A model generated the notes under the pieces. The model did not search any database and had not been told where the DNA came from. It saw only the letters and a program-made list of their open reading frames with translations. This document shows, in pieces, positions 1 to 27,274 of a DNA stretch of 33,162 nt. Numbering within the stretch: position 1 is the first letter of the stretch; every line of letters begins with the position of its first letter. The stretch comes from Dehalococcoidia bacterium (GTDB taxonomy: Bacteria > Chloroflexota > Dehalococcoidia > DSTF01 > RBG-16-68-14), in assembly GCA_040882355.1 (NCBI GenBank), contig JBBEBM010000030.1, positions 1 through 33,162 on the forward strand, read 5' to 3'. The position numbers were made by a program, and so were the translations under genes.

Positions 1-63
1 CCCCCCCCCCCCCCCCGGCAGGGGCGCTGCGCCCCCTGCACCCCCGCCTTCAGCACGTGTTAG
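1..63 (+). repeat. Partial copy (right half) of MITE-like repeat family A
   Basis: ccggcaggggcgctgcgccccctgcaccccc...ttcagcacgtgttag matches the right half of the copies at 1965, 9109 and 25272; the leading poly-C is probably an artefact. Confidence 0.75.
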
Positions 64-1412: not shown

Positions 1413-1910
1413 CTAACCGAAGCGTGCTACCTCCCTCTGGAGGTCGAGCGGTAGCACGACGGCCGCGCGTTCGTACTCGCCCCACTGATCGCGAGGCGCC
1501 ATCCACATCACCTCGAACTCGATGCCGTCGGGGTCGCGCCCGTAGAGCGACTTCGTCGCGCCGTGGTCGCTCATGCCGGTGAGCGCATCGAACTCCGTGA
1601 GGACGGCCGCAGCAGCGGCGAGGTCGTGGATCGACGGCACCTCCCAGGCGAGATGGTACAGGCCAACGGAGCCGCGTGGCGGCTGCGGCGCCTGGCCACC
1701 GACGGAGAACAGCGCAAGGTCGTGGTGGTTCGCCGAGCCGGCGGCGCGCATGAAGGCCATGGGGCCTTCACGCCCGATCTCCTCGAAGCCGAATGCGCGC
1801 CGGTAGAAGTCGAGGGAGCGCTCGATGTCGCGGACGTAGAGGACGGCGTGGTTCAAGCGCGCGACGGGGATCGCGCCCAGTCCTCCTGCGTTGCTCTCCG
1901 CTGACGTCAT
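1413..1910 (-). CDS. VOC/glyoxalase family protein (catechol 2,3-dioxygenase-like)
   Basis: LNHAVLYVRD, HHDLAL, GLYHLAW and SLYGRDPDGIEFE motifs. Confidence 0.85.
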   Translation of the reverse strand: MTSAESNAGGLGAIPVARLNHAVLYVRDIERSLDFYRRAFGFEEIGREGPMAFMRAAGSANHHDLALFSVGGQAPQPPRGSVGLYHLAWEVPSIHDLAAAAAVLTEFDALTGMSDHGATKSLYGRDPDGIEFEVMWMAPRDQWGEYERAAVVLPLDLQREVARFG

Positions 1911-1964
1911 TGCTACCTTCGCTCCCCGTCCGGCCGTACGGTTTTCGGGTCCGGGTCTCTTGGC

Positions 1965-2117: not shown

Positions 2118-2947
2118 CCGCCCATGAACTTCGCTTCGCGCTTCTCGATGAAGGCGCGGACGGCCTCACGCGAGTCGTTGCTCATGCCGGAGAGGCGCAT
2201 GTTGAGCGCCTCGTGGTCCATCAGCGTCTTCAGGTCGGCGTGCGCGGCCAAGTTGAGGTTCTCCTTCATGCGCGCGTACGTCCGCGTCGGGCCGGCGGCG
2301 AGCTTCGTCGCGAGGGCCATCGTCTCGGCCTCGAGGTTGTCGTGCGGCACCACGCGGTTCACCATGCCGAGCCGCAGCGCTTCCTGCGCTTCGATGATCT
2401 CGGCGGTGAAGTAGAGCTCGCGCGCCTTGCCCGCGCCGATCAGCCGCTGCAGATAGTACGAGCCGCCGTAGTCGCCGCTGAGGCCGACGTTGCGAAACGC
2501 GGTACCGAACTTCGCTTGCTCGGACGCGACGCGCAAGTCAGCGGCGAGGGCGAGGCTCAGCCCCGCGCCGACCGCGTAGCCGTTCACCATCGCGATGGTC
2601 GGCTTGGGCATCGTGTGGAGGGCGTAGCTCGTCTGCAACTGCGACTCGCGCAGGCCGCGGACGGCGTCGTCCATCATGCCGATCATCGAGACCTGGGCCT
2701 CGCCGCCGTTCTCCTTGGGCGGCGCGGGGCGCTGGCCCATGCCCTTGACGTCGCCGCCGGCGCAGAAGCCGCGGCCATTGCCGGTGAGGACGACGCAGCG
2801 CACGTCGTTGTCGCGCGACGCCTCGCCGAGGTATTTAGCGAGCAGCGGCATCAGCATGCCGCCCATCGCGTTCAGGCTGTCAGGCCGGTTCAGGGTGATC
2901 ACGGCGACGCCGTCGGGTCGCTTCTCGTAGAGGACGTCATCGGGCAT
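2114..2947 (-). CDS. Enoyl-CoA hydratase/isomerase (crotonase) family protein, PaaG-like
   Basis: ITLNRPDSLNA, FCAGGDV, KPTIAMVNGYAVGAG, GLSGDYGG and AFIEKREAKF motifs; GGAGGT RBS. Confidence 0.92.
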   Translation of the reverse strand: MPDDVLYEKRPDGVAVITLNRPDSLNAMGGMLMPLLAKYLGEASRDNDVRCVVLTGNGRGFCAGGDVKGMGQRPAPPKENGGEAQVSMIGMMDDAVRGLRESQLQTSYALHTMPKPTIAMVNGYAVGAGLSLALAADLRVASEQAKFGTAFRNVGLSGDYGGSYYLQRLIGAGKARELYFTAEIIEAQEALRLGMVNRVVPHDNLEAETMALATKLAAGPTRTYARMKENLNLAAHADLKTLMDHEALNMRLSGMSNDSREAVRAFIEKREAKFMGG

Positions 2948-3039
2948 GGAAACACCTCCGCTGCTATCGATATCAGCGTTCGGAGTCTACATCAGGGAGG
3001 GCGAGGGCGGCAACGGGAGGGGCGGCGGGTGCGCGCGGC

Positions 3040-3717
3040 TTAGGTGACCGGAGCAGCCAATCGAGCCTCTTCAAGATATGGCGTCGCGAACTGGACAACC
3101 GCTTCGGGACTCTCGACAAAGAGCGCAACGATCCTCAAGCCGGTCGGAATTCCCATCTGCCGTGTGTCCAGTTCGTCCTTGAAGAGTCCCACGTTGAAGT
3201 GGGGTGACCTCTTCAATCTGATGAGGACGATGGGGTAGTCCTGGTCCGCCCCGAGCAGACGGGCCAACCGTGCATTCCACTTGCCGACGTCCGCCAGCGT
3301 GCCTACCCGAAAGTCGGCGATGTGCTGCCAGTGGTACCGAGCTGTCGCTGAACTGGAACGAACGACGACGCAATCCGGCCGCAGCTCGATAGTCCCGCTT
3401 TCCATGGAGCGGAACCGCCAGGCCATCACCGGCAGCAGCAAAACGCAAGTGATCAGGACGGCCTCGAACAGGCGACGGTCGACGACGCCCGCGAGTAGAA
3501 GGGCAAGCGTGATGAGAGGCCCAAGGATCGCTGCGGCAAGAAGGAGGCGCGTCATCCCCTGAACGAGGGGGTTGTTTCCGACGCGCTGGAACTCGATCCC
3601 CGGTGCATCGCTGTTCGCGCGCTGCTGCTGGGCACGCGCCTTGGCCTTCAGCCACCAAAAGGCCCGCACCAACCCGAATCCGACCAGCACGGTCGCCCAG
3701 ATGACCAATTCGCCCAT
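3040..3717 (-). CDS. Hypothetical membrane protein (about 3 TM plus a soluble PH-like C-terminal region)
   Basis: Three hydrophobic segments; GGAGGAG RBS; codon usage less GC-biased than neighbours. Confidence 0.6.
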   Translation of the reverse strand: MGELVIWATVLVGFGLVRAFWWLKAKARAQQQRANSDAPGIEFQRVGNNPLVQGMTRLLLAAAILGPLITLALLLAGVVDRRLFEAVLITCVLLLPVMAWRFRSMESGTIELRPDCVVVRSSSATARYHWQHIADFRVGTLADVGKWNARLARLLGADQDYPIVLIRLKRSPHFNVGLFKDELDTRQMGIPTGLRIVALFVESPEAVVQFATPYLEEARLAAPVT

Positions 3718-4954: not shown

Positions 4955-5575
4955 CTAGTCGTCCTCGTGGTCTCCACCGTGCACCTCGATCTCGTTCGCG
5001 AGCCAGACGCCGCCAGGGATAGACTGCGCGTGCACGCTCACGACGGCGCCGACGACCAGCGCGCCGCCGTGGACCTCAGTGTCTGCCGTCACCGTCATCG
5101 GGAACTCGCCATGCTCGCCGACGACGATGAAGTGGTTCTCTGACGCGGAGACGATCGATCCCTCGAACTCGGCCTGCTGGCTGTGGAAGCCGTCGTCGAC
5201 GGCCGTTGGCGTATTGTCAGCACTGGCCGGGGTCGCTGGCGGCTGGCTGGGCGGCGCGCCGCTGCCCGCGGTCGCGGCGGGTGGCGGCGCATTCGTGTGG
5301 CGCGACGAACTGCTCGCGCCGCCGTCGTCGTTGCTGGACTGGCCGGGCAGGTACTCGTCGCGGTAGACCACACGTTCGATCACGATCGGTGTAGGGGTCG
5401 GGGCGGCCGTAGGGGGCAGGGTCGGTGGCGGCACGGGCGCTTCCGCGGCGGCCTGCGGCGCGCCATCGTCCGAGCTCGAGCCGAACAGCCCTGCCTCCTT
5501 CCCCGCCGCGACGATCGCGAAACCAACAATGACGGTCAATCCCAACGATACCGCTAGTGATGCTCTCCGTTTCAC
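4955..5575 (-). CDS. Membrane-anchored protein with Pro-rich linker and C-terminal DUF5666-like domain
   Basis: Start reassigned to GTG 5575 (GGAGG RBS, GTGA overlap with the apbE stop); C-terminal EFEGSIVS...VTADTEVHGG.LVVGAVVSV...WLANEIEV resembles DUF5666. Confidence 0.7.
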   Translation of the reverse strand: MKRRASLAVSLGLTVIVGFAIVAAGKEAGLFGSSSDDGAPQAAAEAPVPPPTLPPTAAPTPTPIVIERVVYRDEYLPGQSSNDDGGASSSSRHTNAPPPAATAGSGAPPSQPPATPASADNTPTAVDDGFHSQQAEFEGSIVSASENHFIVVGEHGEFPMTVTADTEVHGGALVVGAVVSVHAQSIPGGVWLANEIEVHGGDHEDD

Positions 5576-6537
5576 GATAACCCTCCAGGCCAGTGTTCCG
5601 TCGTCTCCCACGTGCGATCACCAAGTACGAATAGTCCACCTGCGCCCTGGTCGGACAAGAAGCGCTCGCCTGCCTCGCGCCCGAGCAGGAGCGCCACCTT
5701 GGCGAAGACATCCGCCTGCACGGCGCTTGGCGCGACGACCGACACCGAGATGACGTCGTTCTCCACGGGCTCGCCAGTTCGCGGATCGATCAGGTGGTGC
5801 AGCCAGCGCCCCTCCCGCTGCCAGCGCCGTCGCGCGACCGTCGACGTTGCGAGCGCCTGGTTGTGCAGGCGGACGGTCGTGAGGTCCTCGCCCGCGCGCT
5901 GCGGGTCGGAGACGCCGACGAGCCATCCCTCGCCGTCCGGCCCGTAGCCCGAGGCGAAGATGTCGCCGCCAGCGTCGACGAGGTAGTGGACGGCGGGGGT
6001 AAGGGCGCGCGCTGCCTCATCGACGGCCCAGCCCTTGCCGATGCCGCCCAAATCGATGCGCAGGCCGGCAGGGACGCGCACGGTGCTGTGTTCGGCGTCA
6101 AGGCACGCGTCCGCAATCGAGCCTCGGATCGTCGGTCCGAGCGATGGACCGCCCGCCGCCGAGGCCGGCACCTGCTCGAACGAGCGATCGTACCCAGCGG
6201 CCTCCAGGCTGGGCAGGACGGCCGGCTCGAAAAGGCCGCCGGAGATCTCGTGGTAGCGCTCGCTTAGCTTCAGCAGGCGAAAGAGCTCCGGCGAGACGGC
6301 GACCTCCTCGCCGGCACGCGCGTTGAGCCGCGAGAGCTCGCTATCTGGCCGGAAACGGCTGAAGCGCGCCTCGATCTCGTGGAAGACGGCTTCGGCGGCC
6401 TGGAGCAGCTCCGGGCCCGGCCAGTCGCCCGTGAATAGCGTGACGTCCGTATTCATCGCGCGGAACGGCCAGCGGCCCATCAACACTGGCTGATAGGCGG
6501 GCTCCGAGACTGAGCCAGGGCTTCTCCGAATGCTCAC
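5572..6537 (-). CDS. apbE: FAD:protein FMN transferase (ApbE family)
   Basis: FRAMNT, FSRFRPDSELSRLN, IDLGGIGKGWAVD, VDAGGDI, ALATS, HHLIDPRTG and ADVFAK motifs; exact start uncertain (6537 or 6480). Confidence 0.93.
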   Translation of the reverse strand: MSIRRSPGSVSEPAYQPVLMGRWPFRAMNTDVTLFTGDWPGPELLQAAEAVFHEIEARFSRFRPDSELSRLNARAGEEVAVSPELFRLLKLSERYHEISGGLFEPAVLPSLEAAGYDRSFEQVPASAAGGPSLGPTIRGSIADACLDAEHSTVRVPAGLRIDLGGIGKGWAVDEAARALTPAVHYLVDAGGDIFASGYGPDGEGWLVGVSDPQRAGEDLTTVRLHNQALATSTVARRRWQREGRWLHHLIDPRTGEPVENDVISVSVVAPSAVQADVFAKVALLLGREAGERFLSDQGAGGLFVLGDRTWETTEHWPGGLS

Positions 6538-6714
6538 AACAGTGCAATCGATCTAGCGCGGAGGAAGGTTACGTCAAGAGCCTAGGAGATCGGCAGGTTT
6601 TTTTCAATGGGCAGGAAGCGCAGGCACCAGCGCAAGCGGGTTGGATGCACCATCTAGCCAAGCCACCTCGACACCGGCGCCTGCGCGCACGGGCGCTCGG
6701 AGAGACTCGCGCCG

Positions 6715-7111
6715 TTACATGCCGGGCGCCTGGCACCGGGCGACGCGCCACCGCTCGGGCCCTTCGCTTCGCTCAAGGGCAGGCTGCTCGGCCGTTGCGC
6801 ACCACCCCCTCCCGCGCCCTTCGACAGGCTCAGGCCTGGCCCTCTCCCCCCTCCGGCGGGCAGGCGCCACGCGGGAGAGGGAGCACTGCTGTGAGGGCCA
6901 CGCCTCCGCGATTACGTCCCAGGCGCCTGGCGCGGCGCGACACGCCACAGATCCGGCCCTTCGCTTCGCTCAAGGGCAGGCTCCTCAGCCGTTGCGCACC
7001 ACCCTCTCCCTCGCCCTTCGACAGGATCAGGGCTGGCCCTCTCCCGCTCCTCCGGCGGGCAGGCGCCACGCGGGAGAGGGAGCACTGCTGTGAGGGCCGC
7101 GCCCTCCGGGC
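6715..7111. repeat. Two tandem ~200-bp units (6715-6911, 6912-7111), each a relic of the SDR 3' end plus nested REP-like elements
   Basis: Units align with each other and with 7112-7176; they contain cccttcgcttcgctcaagggcaggc, cccttcgacagg.tcagg and a ccctctccc...gggagaggg hairpin. Confidence 0.85.
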
Positions 7112-7903
7112 TTACGTCCCGGGCACCTGGCGCGGGGCGACGCGCCATAGCTCCGGAGGGACGCCGTTGCGCACCATCAGGGCCCTTCCGGCCAGCGAGT
7201 CGTCCTTGATCAGCGAGACGACGGCGTCGGCGATCTCTTCCGGCGCGAGGATGGGCAGCGACGCCAGGCGGCTCGCGGTGGCCGAGCGCTCTTCGGCCGA
7301 GACGGCGTCGCTCGCCTGGCGGAGCATCGGGGTGTCGACGACACCTGGGCAGACGCAGTTCACGCGGATATTCGCCTCGGTCGCGAGCGGCGCCATCGAC
7401 GAGGTGAAGAGGACAACGCCGCCCTTGCTCGCAGCGTAGACGGGGTTGGGTGGAAAGCCGACGCCGATACCCGCCATCGACGCCGTGTTGACGATCGCGC
7501 CGCCGCCGCGCTTGCGCATCGCCTGGATGCCGTACTGCGTGCCGAGGATCACGCCGCGCAGGTTGATGTCGAGCATGCGCGACCAGGCCTCGGCGTCGCC
7601 TTCGGGGTAGCGCGGCTCGCGGGTGATGATGCCGGCGTTATTGTGGAGGATGTCCAGCCCGCCGAACGTCTCCCCCGCGAAGGCGACCATCGCCCTCACG
7701 TCGGCCTCGTTCGTGACGTCGGCGCGCACGAACGCCGCGCGAGCACCTGACGATTCGATCTGCGCCACGGTCTCGCGGCCGCCCCCCTCGTTCATGTCGA
7801 CGACGACGACAGCGGCACCCTCTGTCGCTAGCCGCAGCGCGGACGCGCGGCCGATGCCTGACCCAGCGCCCGTCACGAGCGCGACTTTGTTGGTGATATC
7901 CAT
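7112..7903 (-). CDS. Short-chain dehydrogenase/reductase (SDR)
   Basis: TGAGSGIG, NNAG, YAASK and VCPGVVDT motifs; start reassigned to ATG 7903 behind a GAAAGGA RBS. Confidence 0.93.
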   Translation of the reverse strand: MDITNKVALVTGAGSGIGRASALRLATEGAAVVVVDMNEGGGRETVAQIESSGARAAFVRADVTNEADVRAMVAFAGETFGGLDILHNNAGIITREPRYPEGDAEAWSRMLDINLRGVILGTQYGIQAMRKRGGGAIVNTASMAGIGVGFPPNPVYAASKGGVVLFTSSMAPLATEANIRVNCVCPGVVDTPMLRQASDAVSAEERSATASRLASLPILAPEEIADAVVSLIKDDSLAGRALMVRNGVPPELWRVAPRQVPGT

Positions 7904-9108: not shown

Positions 9109-9287
9109 GAGCAGGGTGCTGAAGAACCACGTCTGCCTATCCCACCCGCCCGCCCAGGGAGGAATTGGGTGGGGGGGGGGGGGGGGGGGGGGGGGGNNNN
9201 NNNNNNCTGCGCCCCCCCCCCCCCCCCCCCGGCAGGGGCGCTGCGCCCCCTGCACCCCCGCTCTCTCCGCATTCTGCCAGCCTGCTG
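9109..9287 (+). repeat. MITE-like repeat family A copy containing an assembly gap
   Basis: gagcagggtgctgaagaa...cccacccgcccgcccagg...ggcaggggcgctgcgccccctgcaccccc...cagcctgct; Ns at 9197-9206 flanked by poly-G/poly-C. Confidence 0.75.
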
Positions 9288-9646: not shown

Positions 9647-10685
9647 CTACTGAGCGACGAAGTGATTGAGCGGCGGGTTGGCGCCTTCGCTCACGGTGAT
9701 GTACCCGCGGCCGTCCGAGTCGAAGGCGAGCGCCTCGCCCTGCGGCTCGATGACGGATGGCGCTTCGCAGGGGACGCCGGCGAGGGCCTCGGCCAGCGAC
9801 GCGCCCTCCGGCCTGTCCCACACCCAGACCGTGCCGTAGGTGCGGATCGCGACGGCGTCGCCAGCCGGCGACACGTCGCCGCCTGTCGGCAGAAACGGGG
9901 CGCCGCGCACGATGGCCGGCGCTTCGGCTGGAATGACGGCCTGGCTATCGAGCGCCGTGAAGTCGATCTCGCCGACCTGCTCCAGTGTCGCGGGCGCTGA
10001 GCCGTCGATCGTGCCGGGCGCGCGGAAGATGAGGGACGGCTGCACGAGCTCCTTCGTCACGATCACGATGTCACCACTCACCGGATCGACGAGCAGCGTC
10101 TCGGCATCGTGGGCGCGATCCGGGTAGCGCAACGTCAGCGCCTCGGCGTCAGGCACCTCCGCGGCGGTAGGCGTGCCGCCTGCAGAAACGGGCGGCTCAG
10201 GCACGCGGTAGACGACGACCTCGGGACGCGCGGCGCCGTTATCGCCCATGTCCGCGAGATAGAGGTACTGCACGCCTTCCTGCGGGCCGGGCCCCATCGC
10301 CATGTCCTCCCAGTCGGTCGCCTGCGCGCCCACAAGCGTGTACGTGCCGAGGTGGGCGCCGTCCGTGCCCATGGCGAAGACGCGGGCGCTATCGCCGCTG
10401 TCGTTGTGGGCCCAGAGCACGCCGTCCTGCCCCCAGCTGGCGGCGATGCCGGAGATCTCGACGAGGTCCGCCGACGCGACGGTAGCCAGTACCTCAGGAG
10501 TCGCGGCGCAGAGCGCGGCGGCTTGGCGGGCGGCGGCTTTGACTTCCTCCGGCTCNNNNNNNNNNGGGCGGCGGCGCCGCGGAGGTGGGCGCCGCGCTAT
10601 CGCCGTCGTCATCGTCGCAGGCGACGGCGAGCGCCAGCGCGAGCGCGGCGAAGAGCACGGCGAGGCGTGAGTATGTCACAGGCAT
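9647..10685 (-). CDS. Putative lipoprotein with beta-propeller-like (phytase/esterase-like) domain; frame interrupted by an assembly gap
   Basis: N-terminus MPVTYSRLAVLFAALALALAVAC (lipobox) at 10685; body EISG, WAHNDSG, DWEDMA, ADMGDN, DAETL, QGEALAF; frames differ only across the Ns at 10556-10565. Confidence 0.75.
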
Positions 10686-27249: not shown

Positions 27250-27274
27250 CCCTTCGCTGCGCTCGAGGGCAGGC
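27250..27274. repeat. REP-like unit family B
   Basis: cccttcgctgcgctcgagggcaggc. Confidence 0.7.

Follow-up and report, generated by a model that had tools for sequence, protein, structure and literature searches.

A gene end present three times at an intact short-chain dehydrogenase/reductase gene in a draft Dehalococcoidia genome

Introduction

In a 33,162-nt stretch of DNA from an uncultured member of the Dehalococcoidia, the 3' end of a short-chain dehydrogenase/reductase (SDR) gene, roughly its final 20 codons, is followed by two dead copies of itself, separated by palindrome-rich spacers. The whole stretch is called the window in this work; it is one contig (labelled C30) of a draft genome (labelled G000) that consists of 82 contigs and is 94% complete. 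The closest described system is insertion with long target duplication, of which an earlier account is said to be that of Nobusato et al. in 2000. As described by Kobayashi's group, the insert in such cases lies between direct repeats, of tens to hundreds of bp, of an otherwise unique target (Furuta et al. 2010, PMC2853133). According to the same description, the repeats often overlap the 3' end of a gene, and the insert, which lacks a mobility gene, can be amplified through the repeats (PMC2853133). Such duplications have been described as products of two processes, namely the integration of a small circle by single crossover and homologous recombination of the one-sided type (PMC3240628; PMC3784515).

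The array behind the SDR gene resembles these insertions in several ways. Direct repeats of the target longer than 30 bp (an anchor of 14 nt plus 45 nt) flank each of its two spacers, H0 and H1; the repeat is otherwise unique in the genome, and the insert contains neither a transposase nor an integrase. On the other hand, the inserts described by Furuta et al. are restriction-modification units of kilobase size, whereas the insert at this locus is a non-coding palindrome mosaic of 107-110 nt, and the cases given there were shown against empty sites in sister strains, whereas here the insertion is read from the occupied site alone (PMC2853133).

The reading preferred here, to which a probability of roughly 0.58 is given, is that the array is a non-coding scar where an intact SDR gene ends, produced by an insertion with long target duplication, by amplification, by invasion of a repetitive extragenic palindromic (REP) element and by exchange. 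Most likely the array has no function of its own. Scars of this kind have already been described, and the feature of further interest is the codon-position bias of the differences between the copies.

Other known systems share single features with the locus. The REP sequences and bacterial interspersed mosaic elements (BIME) of enterobacteria and pseudomonads are also short GC-rich imperfect palindromes, found in tens of dispersed copies and grouped in mosaics directly behind genes; Y1 transposase genes in the genome and, in relatives, a stem variant with compensatory changes add to the likeness, but the sequence family found here, termed REP-A, is unrelated. In attL/attR duplications and in the C-terminal displacement of Rhs/CDI genes, an intact gene end is likewise followed by a displaced dead copy, and relics can stack; here, in contrast, there are no cargo genes, no Phage_integrase match was found on the contig and the insert is about 110 nt long. 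Mycobacterial minisatellites of the MIRU type (mycobacterial interspersed repetitive units) are tandem intergenic units of about 50-100 bp that overlap gene ends, and they form multi-locus families of one unit. The array has the tandem intergenic arrangement and the overlap with a gene end in common with them, and differs in that each locus in this genome repeats its own gene end.

Layout of the array

The components of the array, in window positions and in the direction of transcription, are as follows.

7112-7903, minus strand: intact SDR gene, 263 aa, with ATG at 7903, defined by its open reading frame and translation
7112-7176, minus strand: live gene end, made of the 14-nt anchor (7176-7163), GTCCCT (7162-7157) and the tail T'0 (7156-7112, 45 nt including TAA)
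7002-7111, minus strand: spacer H0, a palindromic-module mosaic of 110 nt
6912-7001, minus strand: relic unit 1, made of the anchor (7001-6988), a 31-nt REP-A insert (6987-6957) and the tail T'1 (6956-6912)
6805-6911, minus strand: spacer H1, 107 nt, a copy of H0
6715-6804, minus strand: relic unit 2, made of the anchor (6804-6791), a 31-nt REP-A insert (6790-6760) and the tail T'2 (6759-6715)
6538-6714, minus strand: unique intergenic DNA after the last relic, with no third spacer copy and, by BLAST, no second copy in the genome

The gene end (T), which comprises the anchor, 16 codons and the stop, is present three times and the spacer (H) twice; H always stands between two copies of T and never after the last one. 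The three units measure 175, 197 and 90 nt. The anchor, which holds the codons for M-VRNG, is exactly the same in its three copies, and the 45-nt tail is present three times without any indel and with the stop codon kept in every copy. In the translation of the minus strand the SDR protein ends in ...LMVRNGVPPELWRVAPRQVPGT, T'1 reads PDLWRVAPRQAPGT and T'2 reads PERWRVARCQAPGM, each up to its stop. A preliminary description of the window had reported three SDR 3' ends, the two downstream ones being dead copies with these tails, and both the coordinates and the translations agree with it, refined in two respects, the insert's size and the lengths of the units. Compared with itself by BLAST, the array gives a match of 245 nt at 88% identity (E 1.6e-83), well above what chance would produce, and a repeat search of the window returns it as a family (D1) of 139 nt at 87%; Tandem Repeats Finder, run at a min_score of 30, did not list it. 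Whole-genome BLAST of the region places T at this locus only.

The tail of the SDR protein is native coding sequence, because its homologs retain RNG-x-P-x-E-L. In the genomes of the same family, 13 homologs close with RNG-x-P/E-x-E/Q-L and, after it, a short proline-rich tail. The nearest proteins in a large protein collection (83-89% identity) end in MAPELWRVPTRQVPGT (P0002), in LPRELLRMPAPRVPGT or in VPPELWRVAPRQVPGT (P0004), the last of which is identical to the tail encoded in the window. A comparison of SDR 3' ends among relatives had been proposed in the preliminary description; the relic residues D or A occur in 0 of the 7 closest SDR proteins with tails examined (P0002-P0008, 76-89% identity), of which P0003 ends before the V/A position.

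Support for the array in independent unitigs

The stretch is contained in four sediment-metagenome runs from a single study, among them perhaps the source sample. The Logan unitigs of these runs (k = 31), which are contigs and not single reads, were built independently of the genome record. In run X1, unitigs with 0 differences cover 6300-6879, 6870-7078 and 7069-7500; in X2 they cover 6412-6819, 6882-7050 and 7049-7205, and in X3 6761-6879 and 6850-7078, again with 0 differences. Run X4 reaches only 6300-6854 of the array and X5 has a share of 0.06, and neither was used for any claim.

The breaks between unitigs are confined to a 50-nt stretch that is exactly common to H0 and H1 (6850-6899 = 7049-7098). 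The unitig that bears T'1 has spacer on both sides, so in the graph it must sit between the live end and T'2. Since variants from different strains would give bubbles with common flanks, and these were not observed, the array is real and no chimera of co-assembly. The preliminary description had called for reads to be mapped so as to exclude a strain-chimeric assembly; unitigs of three runs bridge every unit junction without differences. Two joints (6785/6958 and 6834/7008) were not taken for variants, being short-sided matches of REP or block motifs in other contigs.

Elsewhere in the window the assembly has N gaps bordered by homopolymers. The contig opens (1-50) with C16; some 30 nt come next, and they are found again behind a G30-N10-C19 joint at 9167-9230, a feature listed with window positions 1-50 and 9167-9260. 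A second N10 gap lies at 10556-10565. At those sites a homopolymer-bearing repeat seems to interrupt the assembly.

The REP-A insert

In both dead copies, 31 nt replace the 6 nt of the live gene (7162-7157) just after VRNG, a net gain of 25 nt. The REP-like insert that the preliminary description had placed right after VRNG in each copy is thus found as a replacement of 31 nt for 6 nt by a member of a dispersed family. The inserts, which share the rarer T variant, are alike at all but 2 of 31 positions. With the insert of unit 1 comes a TGA directly after VRNG; in unit 2 a stop appears six codons past VRNG. REP-A consists of a 6-bp stem (GCCCTT/AAGGGC) with an inner GC-GAA-GC hairpin, and it falls within the definition of an imperfect palindrome of 20-40 nt. 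Its predicted fold has -9.1 kcal/mol in unit 1 (z -2.95) and -7.4 kcal/mol in unit 2 (z -1.2). The loop contains GCGAAGC, which is a very stable DNA mini-hairpin motif.

REP-A is a dispersed, lineage-restricted REP family. The genome has 34 copies with at most 3 mismatches to the 22-nt core, and 29 with at most 2 mismatches to the 24-nt consensus, against 0 for a reversed control; among genomes of the same bacterial family 6 of 15 have REP-A, and among those of four neighbouring families 0 of 25. In the relatives G001, a genome rich in REP-A, and G014 a variant with CCTGTCC...GGA in place of CCTGCCC...GGG is found several times, a compensatory change that keeps the hairpin. At another locus of the genome, on contig C4, one spacer copy holds REP-A and its sister copy is without it, so that secondary insertion of REP-A is seen directly there.

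REP-A was not found beside a Y1 transposase gene: contigs C50, C32 and C48, where the three Y1_Tnp matches of the genome lie, contain 0 REP-A matches. The three genes are flanked by other hairpin families, and in a genome that is 94% complete the cognate gene could be missing. On C50 (1440-2098) an element of about 115 nt with two hairpins, present as two direct copies, encloses a Y1 transposase gene (1602-1949, minus strand); one of the hairpins, CTGCGGGAT-N-AATCCCGCAG, has 8 copies in the genome and is also present in the spacer of a relic array on C61. On C48 (5985-6760) a RAYT-like gene (WQRNYYERV...YIENNPAQW) has on its flanks a REP of its own, of the GGGCGGGTCTGAGACCCGCCC type, and a copy of this REP lies within the gene. 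REP-A itself occurs five to six times head-to-tail, with a 24-nt period, at C29:111296-111422, and another copy (1 mismatch to the consensus) is found far from the SDR locus, at 27250-27273 of the window.

The spacer H

The modules of H0 follow one another in the order CCCTCAC, CCCTCTCCC..GGGAGAGGG arms, a hairpin that has the stem of REP-A but another loop, and a third block of the GGGAGAGGG type; inverted repeats I4 and I5 were found in it. H0 and H1 are about 92% alike, with 8 mismatches over 107 aligned positions and 2 gap blocks. Neither the gene sequence before the anchor (p 0.40) nor the unique DNA after T'2 (p 0.67) is significantly similar to H. A near-full-length match on another contig (C60:4281-4376, E 0.0065) was rejected because it shares just one REP-like module with H.

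Part of the spacer recalls the BoxC/PIT/TMECO motif. This is an intrastrand-triplex motif which in E. coli is tied to locally unstable DNA, and the mechanism of the instability is called unclear by the authors who describe it (Holder et al. 2015, PMC4666352). The likeness consists in the three blocks CCCTCNCCC, GGGNGAGGG and GGGNGAGGG, which H carries in this order on one strand (a match to a loose three-block regular expression at C30, minus strand, 7080), and in the intergenic position that the motif also has. The difference is in the loops, which measure 25 and 22 nt in H0 against 3-6 and 3 nt in the definition given by Holder et al. (PMC4666352). The strict pattern has 0 matches in the genome and the loose one 35. 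H was therefore not taken as a member of BoxC/PIT/TMECO, its blocks having the right order and its loops the wrong length.

No Rfam family, sigma-70-type promoter or intrinsic terminator was matched in the array. The hairpins of the array may, at the very most, terminate the transcript of the SDR gene or make it more stable. Open reading frames of 77-78 aa run over the relics. They were rejected as small genes, given that their G+C content at codon position 2 is 0.71, against 0.52 in real genes, and that indels between H0 and H1 shift the frame, so that the two spacers are read in different frames. With Rfam, promoter, terminator and codon-position G+C taken together, neither a small protein gene nor an RNA gene in the array finds support.

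Divergence of the gene-end copies

T'0 and T'1 differ at 6 positions, 4 of them synonymous, and the differences fall on codon positions 1/2/3 as 0/1/5. At the variant sites T'1 has the codons GAT, CGT, GCG, GCG and CCT. Between T'0 and T'2 there are 8 differences, whose spread (1/4/3) looks random and of which 3 are synonymous when changes are counted singly, and between T'1 and T'2 there are 10. These counts bear out the preliminary description, where 4 of 6 differences had been called synonymous in the nearer copy and most of them non-synonymous in the farther one. The third-position bias between T'0 and T'1 (5 of 6) has a binomial p of 0.018, whereas the synonymous share alone (4 of 6) is not significant (p 0.063). 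Once T'2 is added to the comparison, 4 changes turn out to be private to T'1, every one of them at a third position (p 0.012), and 6 private to T'2, distributed as 1/3/2 over the codon positions.

A wider count was made over 10 gene-end relic loci of this genome, with the nearest relic at each. It gives 43 synonymous and 32 non-synonymous differences, and 42 of the 75 are at third positions. The synonymous fraction expected from random changes is 0.26 (p 1e-8); it is 0.415 if the live copy accepted synonymous changes only and the relic drifted for an equal time (p 0.004). The excess persists without the SDR locus (39 synonymous, 30 non-synonymous, p 0.008) and without the three loci whose copies are more than 400 nt apart (35 vs 21, p 0.001). 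Mutation bias at G/C sites could lift the third-position share to about 0.42, a rough estimate from codon-position G+C, and the observed share is 0.56.

The third-position and synonymous excess indicates that part of the divergence between live and relic copies arose under coding constraint. The preliminary description had proposed that the nearer relic diverged while still coding and looks like a displaced allele, which is partly supported. The first part of that proposal agrees with the third-position bias and with the excess over 10 loci; for the displacement of a whole allele there is no such support, the H-to-anchor junctions lying at the same base, which fits amplification of one unit better than two separate illegitimate joins, and the relic residues being met in none of the seven nearest tails examined. 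The bias would be accounted for just as well by a duplication in place and a later overwriting of the live copy, with a diverged allele brought in by homologous import.

Similar scars elsewhere in the genome

A scan of the whole draft genome, in which local direct repeats had to contain the stop codon belonging to an open reading frame supported by its third-position G+C, gave 16 pairs. Among these pairs are 11 loci with a short 3'-end relic; 3 loci that repeat a whole gene were set aside. The SDR array is one of about a dozen such scars in this genome, and the following ones, together with a counterpart at a gene start, can be described.

C61:9213-9782: end of an endonuclease-V-like gene (about 105 nt) and an 88-nt hairpin spacer, in threefold repetition with period 193
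C4:129439-129895: gene end in three copies at a period of 186, CTCTCCC..GGGAGAG hairpins, REP-A confined to one of the spacers
C53:70145-70497: end of a MutS-like gene, three copies, period 157, with the CTCTCCC..GGGAGAG hairpin type
C43:90227-90570: two 114-nt copies around one CTCTCCC..GGGAGAG hairpin element
C18:27326-27592: gene 3'-end relic array
C35:27893-28516: two 101-nt copies (27893/28416), 98% identical, around a 420-nt insert
C52:8320-8847: first ~140 nt of a gene (MPDRKVAIVG...), three times, with another REP at each join

The spacers at C4, C53 and C43 contain the modules CCCTCAC, CTCTCCC..GGGAGAG and GGGTGAGGG. Direct repeats of at least 30 nt flank 12 of the 38 CTCTCCC..GGGAGAG hairpins (8 loci), compared with 0 of 38 random positions. 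At C52, the single 5'-end case inspected and a counterpart of the SDR array, the REP at the joins has the loop GAGCGAAGCGAAG and the stem ATTCT/AGAAT.

Two of these loci have gene ends more diverged than their spacers, namely C61 (p 0.016) and C53 (p 0.005). At C61 all 7 differences between live and relic copies fall within the first 60 nt of the gene end, 5 of them synonymous, and the rest is identical; at C53 the gene end differs by 11.9% and the spacer by 1.1%. Both patterns look like the ends of recombination tracts.

Origin of the array

The proposed insertion with long target duplication would have gone through four steps. H would first have entered just behind the stop codon, duplicating about 65 nt of the target. 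REP-A would then have invaded the dead copy, which was under no constraint, and with it a stop codon would have come to lie immediately behind VRNG. In the third step the H-T unit would have been amplified once, the direct repeats having recombined unequally. Finally, homologous exchange with diverged alleles would have produced the mostly third-position differences between T'0 and T'1, either by import into the live gene or by an unequal crossover that stranded a live tail in the middle unit. The amplification step is proposed because the H-to-anchor junctions are identical and the rarer T variant of REP-A is shared by both relics. A simple duplication of contiguous ancestral DNA is excluded by the three copies of T against two of H, since equal numbers would be predicted, and by an H that is foreign to its flanks.

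Several results weigh against this origin. By nhmmer, no second full copy of H was found in the genome, only matches of module size, so that movement of H as a unit is not demonstrated, and H0 and H1 fold no better than shuffled sequences (z -0.9 and -1.3). The nearest DNA compared is 74% identical at the protein level, too distant for its intergenic part to be aligned. The unitig of the middle unit has a depth of 12.7 against 15.8-17 for its flanks, which makes a minority form with two units possible, and every run comes from the one study. At the SDR locus the signal of coding constraint rests on 6 sites, and the comparison of T with spacer divergence is uninformative there (10.2% vs 7.5%, p 0.57). 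Were unit 1 simply copied from unit 2, T'1 and T'2 would be expected to be close, but they differ at 10 of 45 positions and the anchor plus insert at 2 of 45 (Fisher p 0.027), which means that an extra conversion or crossover near the border between insert and T' must be assumed. This oddity may be due to an unequal exchange in which a tail that had once been live stayed behind in the middle unit.

Among the other explanations, plain tandem duplication in place, by replication slippage at hairpins and followed by neutral decay, would need neither foreign DNA nor allele exchange, and it is an unlikely alternative. The DNA of the locus is rich in hairpins, T and spacer have diverged to a similar degree there, and the same genome holds in C61:9213-9782 a plain array of integer copy number, with three gene ends and three spacers. 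Nevertheless, slippage does not account for three T against two H, nor for an H that matches neither flank. Neutral decay predicts about 1/3 of the differences at third positions, whereas the counts are 5 of 6 at the SDR locus and 42 of 75 for the 10 loci together, and the gene ends of C61 and C53 are more diverged than their spacers, which is the opposite of its prediction.

The preliminary description, taken strictly, would imply two successive one-sided recombinations of the homology-facilitated illegitimate type (HFIR), each importing a new SDR 3' end with its own H and pushing the resident end downstream. Single-crossover and HFIR events are on record, with duplications of 109-950 bp in the account consulted (PMC3240628), and this record counts in favour of such a course. 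The third-position bias between T'0 and T'1, the synonymous excess of the genome and the foreign character of H would also be expected from it, and at a homologous locus (L036, described below) the relic has the residues of a sister's live tail. But two illegitimate joins are unlikely to put both H-to-anchor junctions at the same base, and amplification of one unit fits these junctions better than two separate joins. REP-A at the same site of both relics with the same rarer T variant, the similarity of H0 and H1 at about 92%, and relic residues found in no live protein among the 7 nearest tails examined point in the same direction, which makes this course rather improbable, even more so than slippage.

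A working device, that is, a store of alternative C-termini used through recombination or a diversity-generating retroelement, or a repeated module of regulatory RNA or terminator type, has next to no probability. In its favour, the anchor is identical in all three units and T' keeps its in-frame stop and has no indels. Against it, REP-A brings a stop directly after VRNG in unit 1 and there is one six codons after VRNG in unit 2, RVT_1 (reverse transcriptase) has 0 matches in the genome, A is involved in just 1 of the 6 differences between T'0 and T'1, matches to Rfam, promoter and terminator models are missing, and for the SDR, an enzyme of cytoplasmic type, variable tails have no evident use. 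An anchor of 14 nt is also far below the length that homologous recombination usually needs. The preliminary description had already held a reservoir of C-termini to be the less likely reading, and it gains no support here, REP-A placing TGA directly after VRNG in the nearer copy. A diversity-generating retroelement with variable and template repeats (VR/TR) was rejected on the same grounds, there being no RVT_1 match in a genome 94% complete and no tie of the differences to adenines. An integrated element was rejected as well: only about 110 nt without cargo lie between the repeats, and 0 of the 5 Phage_integrase matches of the genome are on C30, serine recombinases not having been searched for.

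An assembly artefact, with strain variants of the SDR 3' end joined serially in a metagenome-assembled genome, could be suspected from the 82 contigs of the draft, the N gaps bordered by homopolymers in the window and a middle unitig somewhat shallower than its flanks, but it is hardly credible when k=31 unitigs of three runs bridge the junctions H1-T'1-REP-anchor-H0 and unique-T'2-REP-anchor-H1 with 0 differences and when strain variants predict bubbles that share both flanks, not a relic with spacer on either side.

Returning to the insertion with long target duplication, one bolder version of it can be put forward, tentatively and as a doubtful proposal: BoxC-like/REP palindrome mosaics would themselves be inserts with long target duplication that rebuild gene ends, and the dead copies would be fossils of live alleles that record allele replacement, without any enzyme encoded by the insert and perhaps through DNA from diverged relatives. 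If this is true, arrays of this kind record past allele replacement in uncultured Dehalococcoidia. If the synonymous excess holds, the relics are a cheap readout of past allele recombination in organisms known from metagenomes only. The dozen or so small, clean examples at 3' and 5' gene ends, several of which share palindrome modules, are good material for the mechanism of long target duplication. As for annotation, the open reading frames that overlap the relics are spurious ones; nor is the repeat to be taken for a strain chimera.

Homologous loci and neighbouring genes

Among the metagenome matches listed to the SDR protein, the best has 74% identity. Out of 102 other loci with SDR homologs, 97 were scored, all with at most 74% protein identity, and one of them (L036) has a gene-end relic of at least 29 nt. 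Behind this distant SDR homolog (52% identity; metagenome contig, 2501-3650) its own tail is found again as a relic, and the interval of about 290 nt from the live tail to the relic contains a frameshifted C-terminal remnant of a Y1/RAYT-type transposase gene. The relic has the residues R-G, like the live tail of the sister homolog L038, whereas the live tail of L036 has S-R; the two loci are 83% identical in DNA, too distant to test an imported 3' tract. No APH-like or ApbE neighbour was seen beside SDR homologs in the retrieved loci, which is uninformative either way.

The live SDR protein matches the Pfam families adh_short (1.3e-58, 198.2 bits, cut-off 26.6) and adh_short_C2 (176.5 bits, cut-off 27). 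The latter spans residues 12-244 of 263, so the last 19 residues form a tail past the Pfam domain. G+C at codon positions 1/2/3 of the gene is 0.68/0.52/0.90. The genes around it are all on the minus strand, in the order APH-family gene (9061-8033), SDR gene (7903-7112) and ApbE-family gene (6537-5572), the last being the feature that follows the unique intergenic DNA.

5572-6537, minus strand: ApbE-family gene (ApbE 5.4e-63), downstream neighbour outside the array

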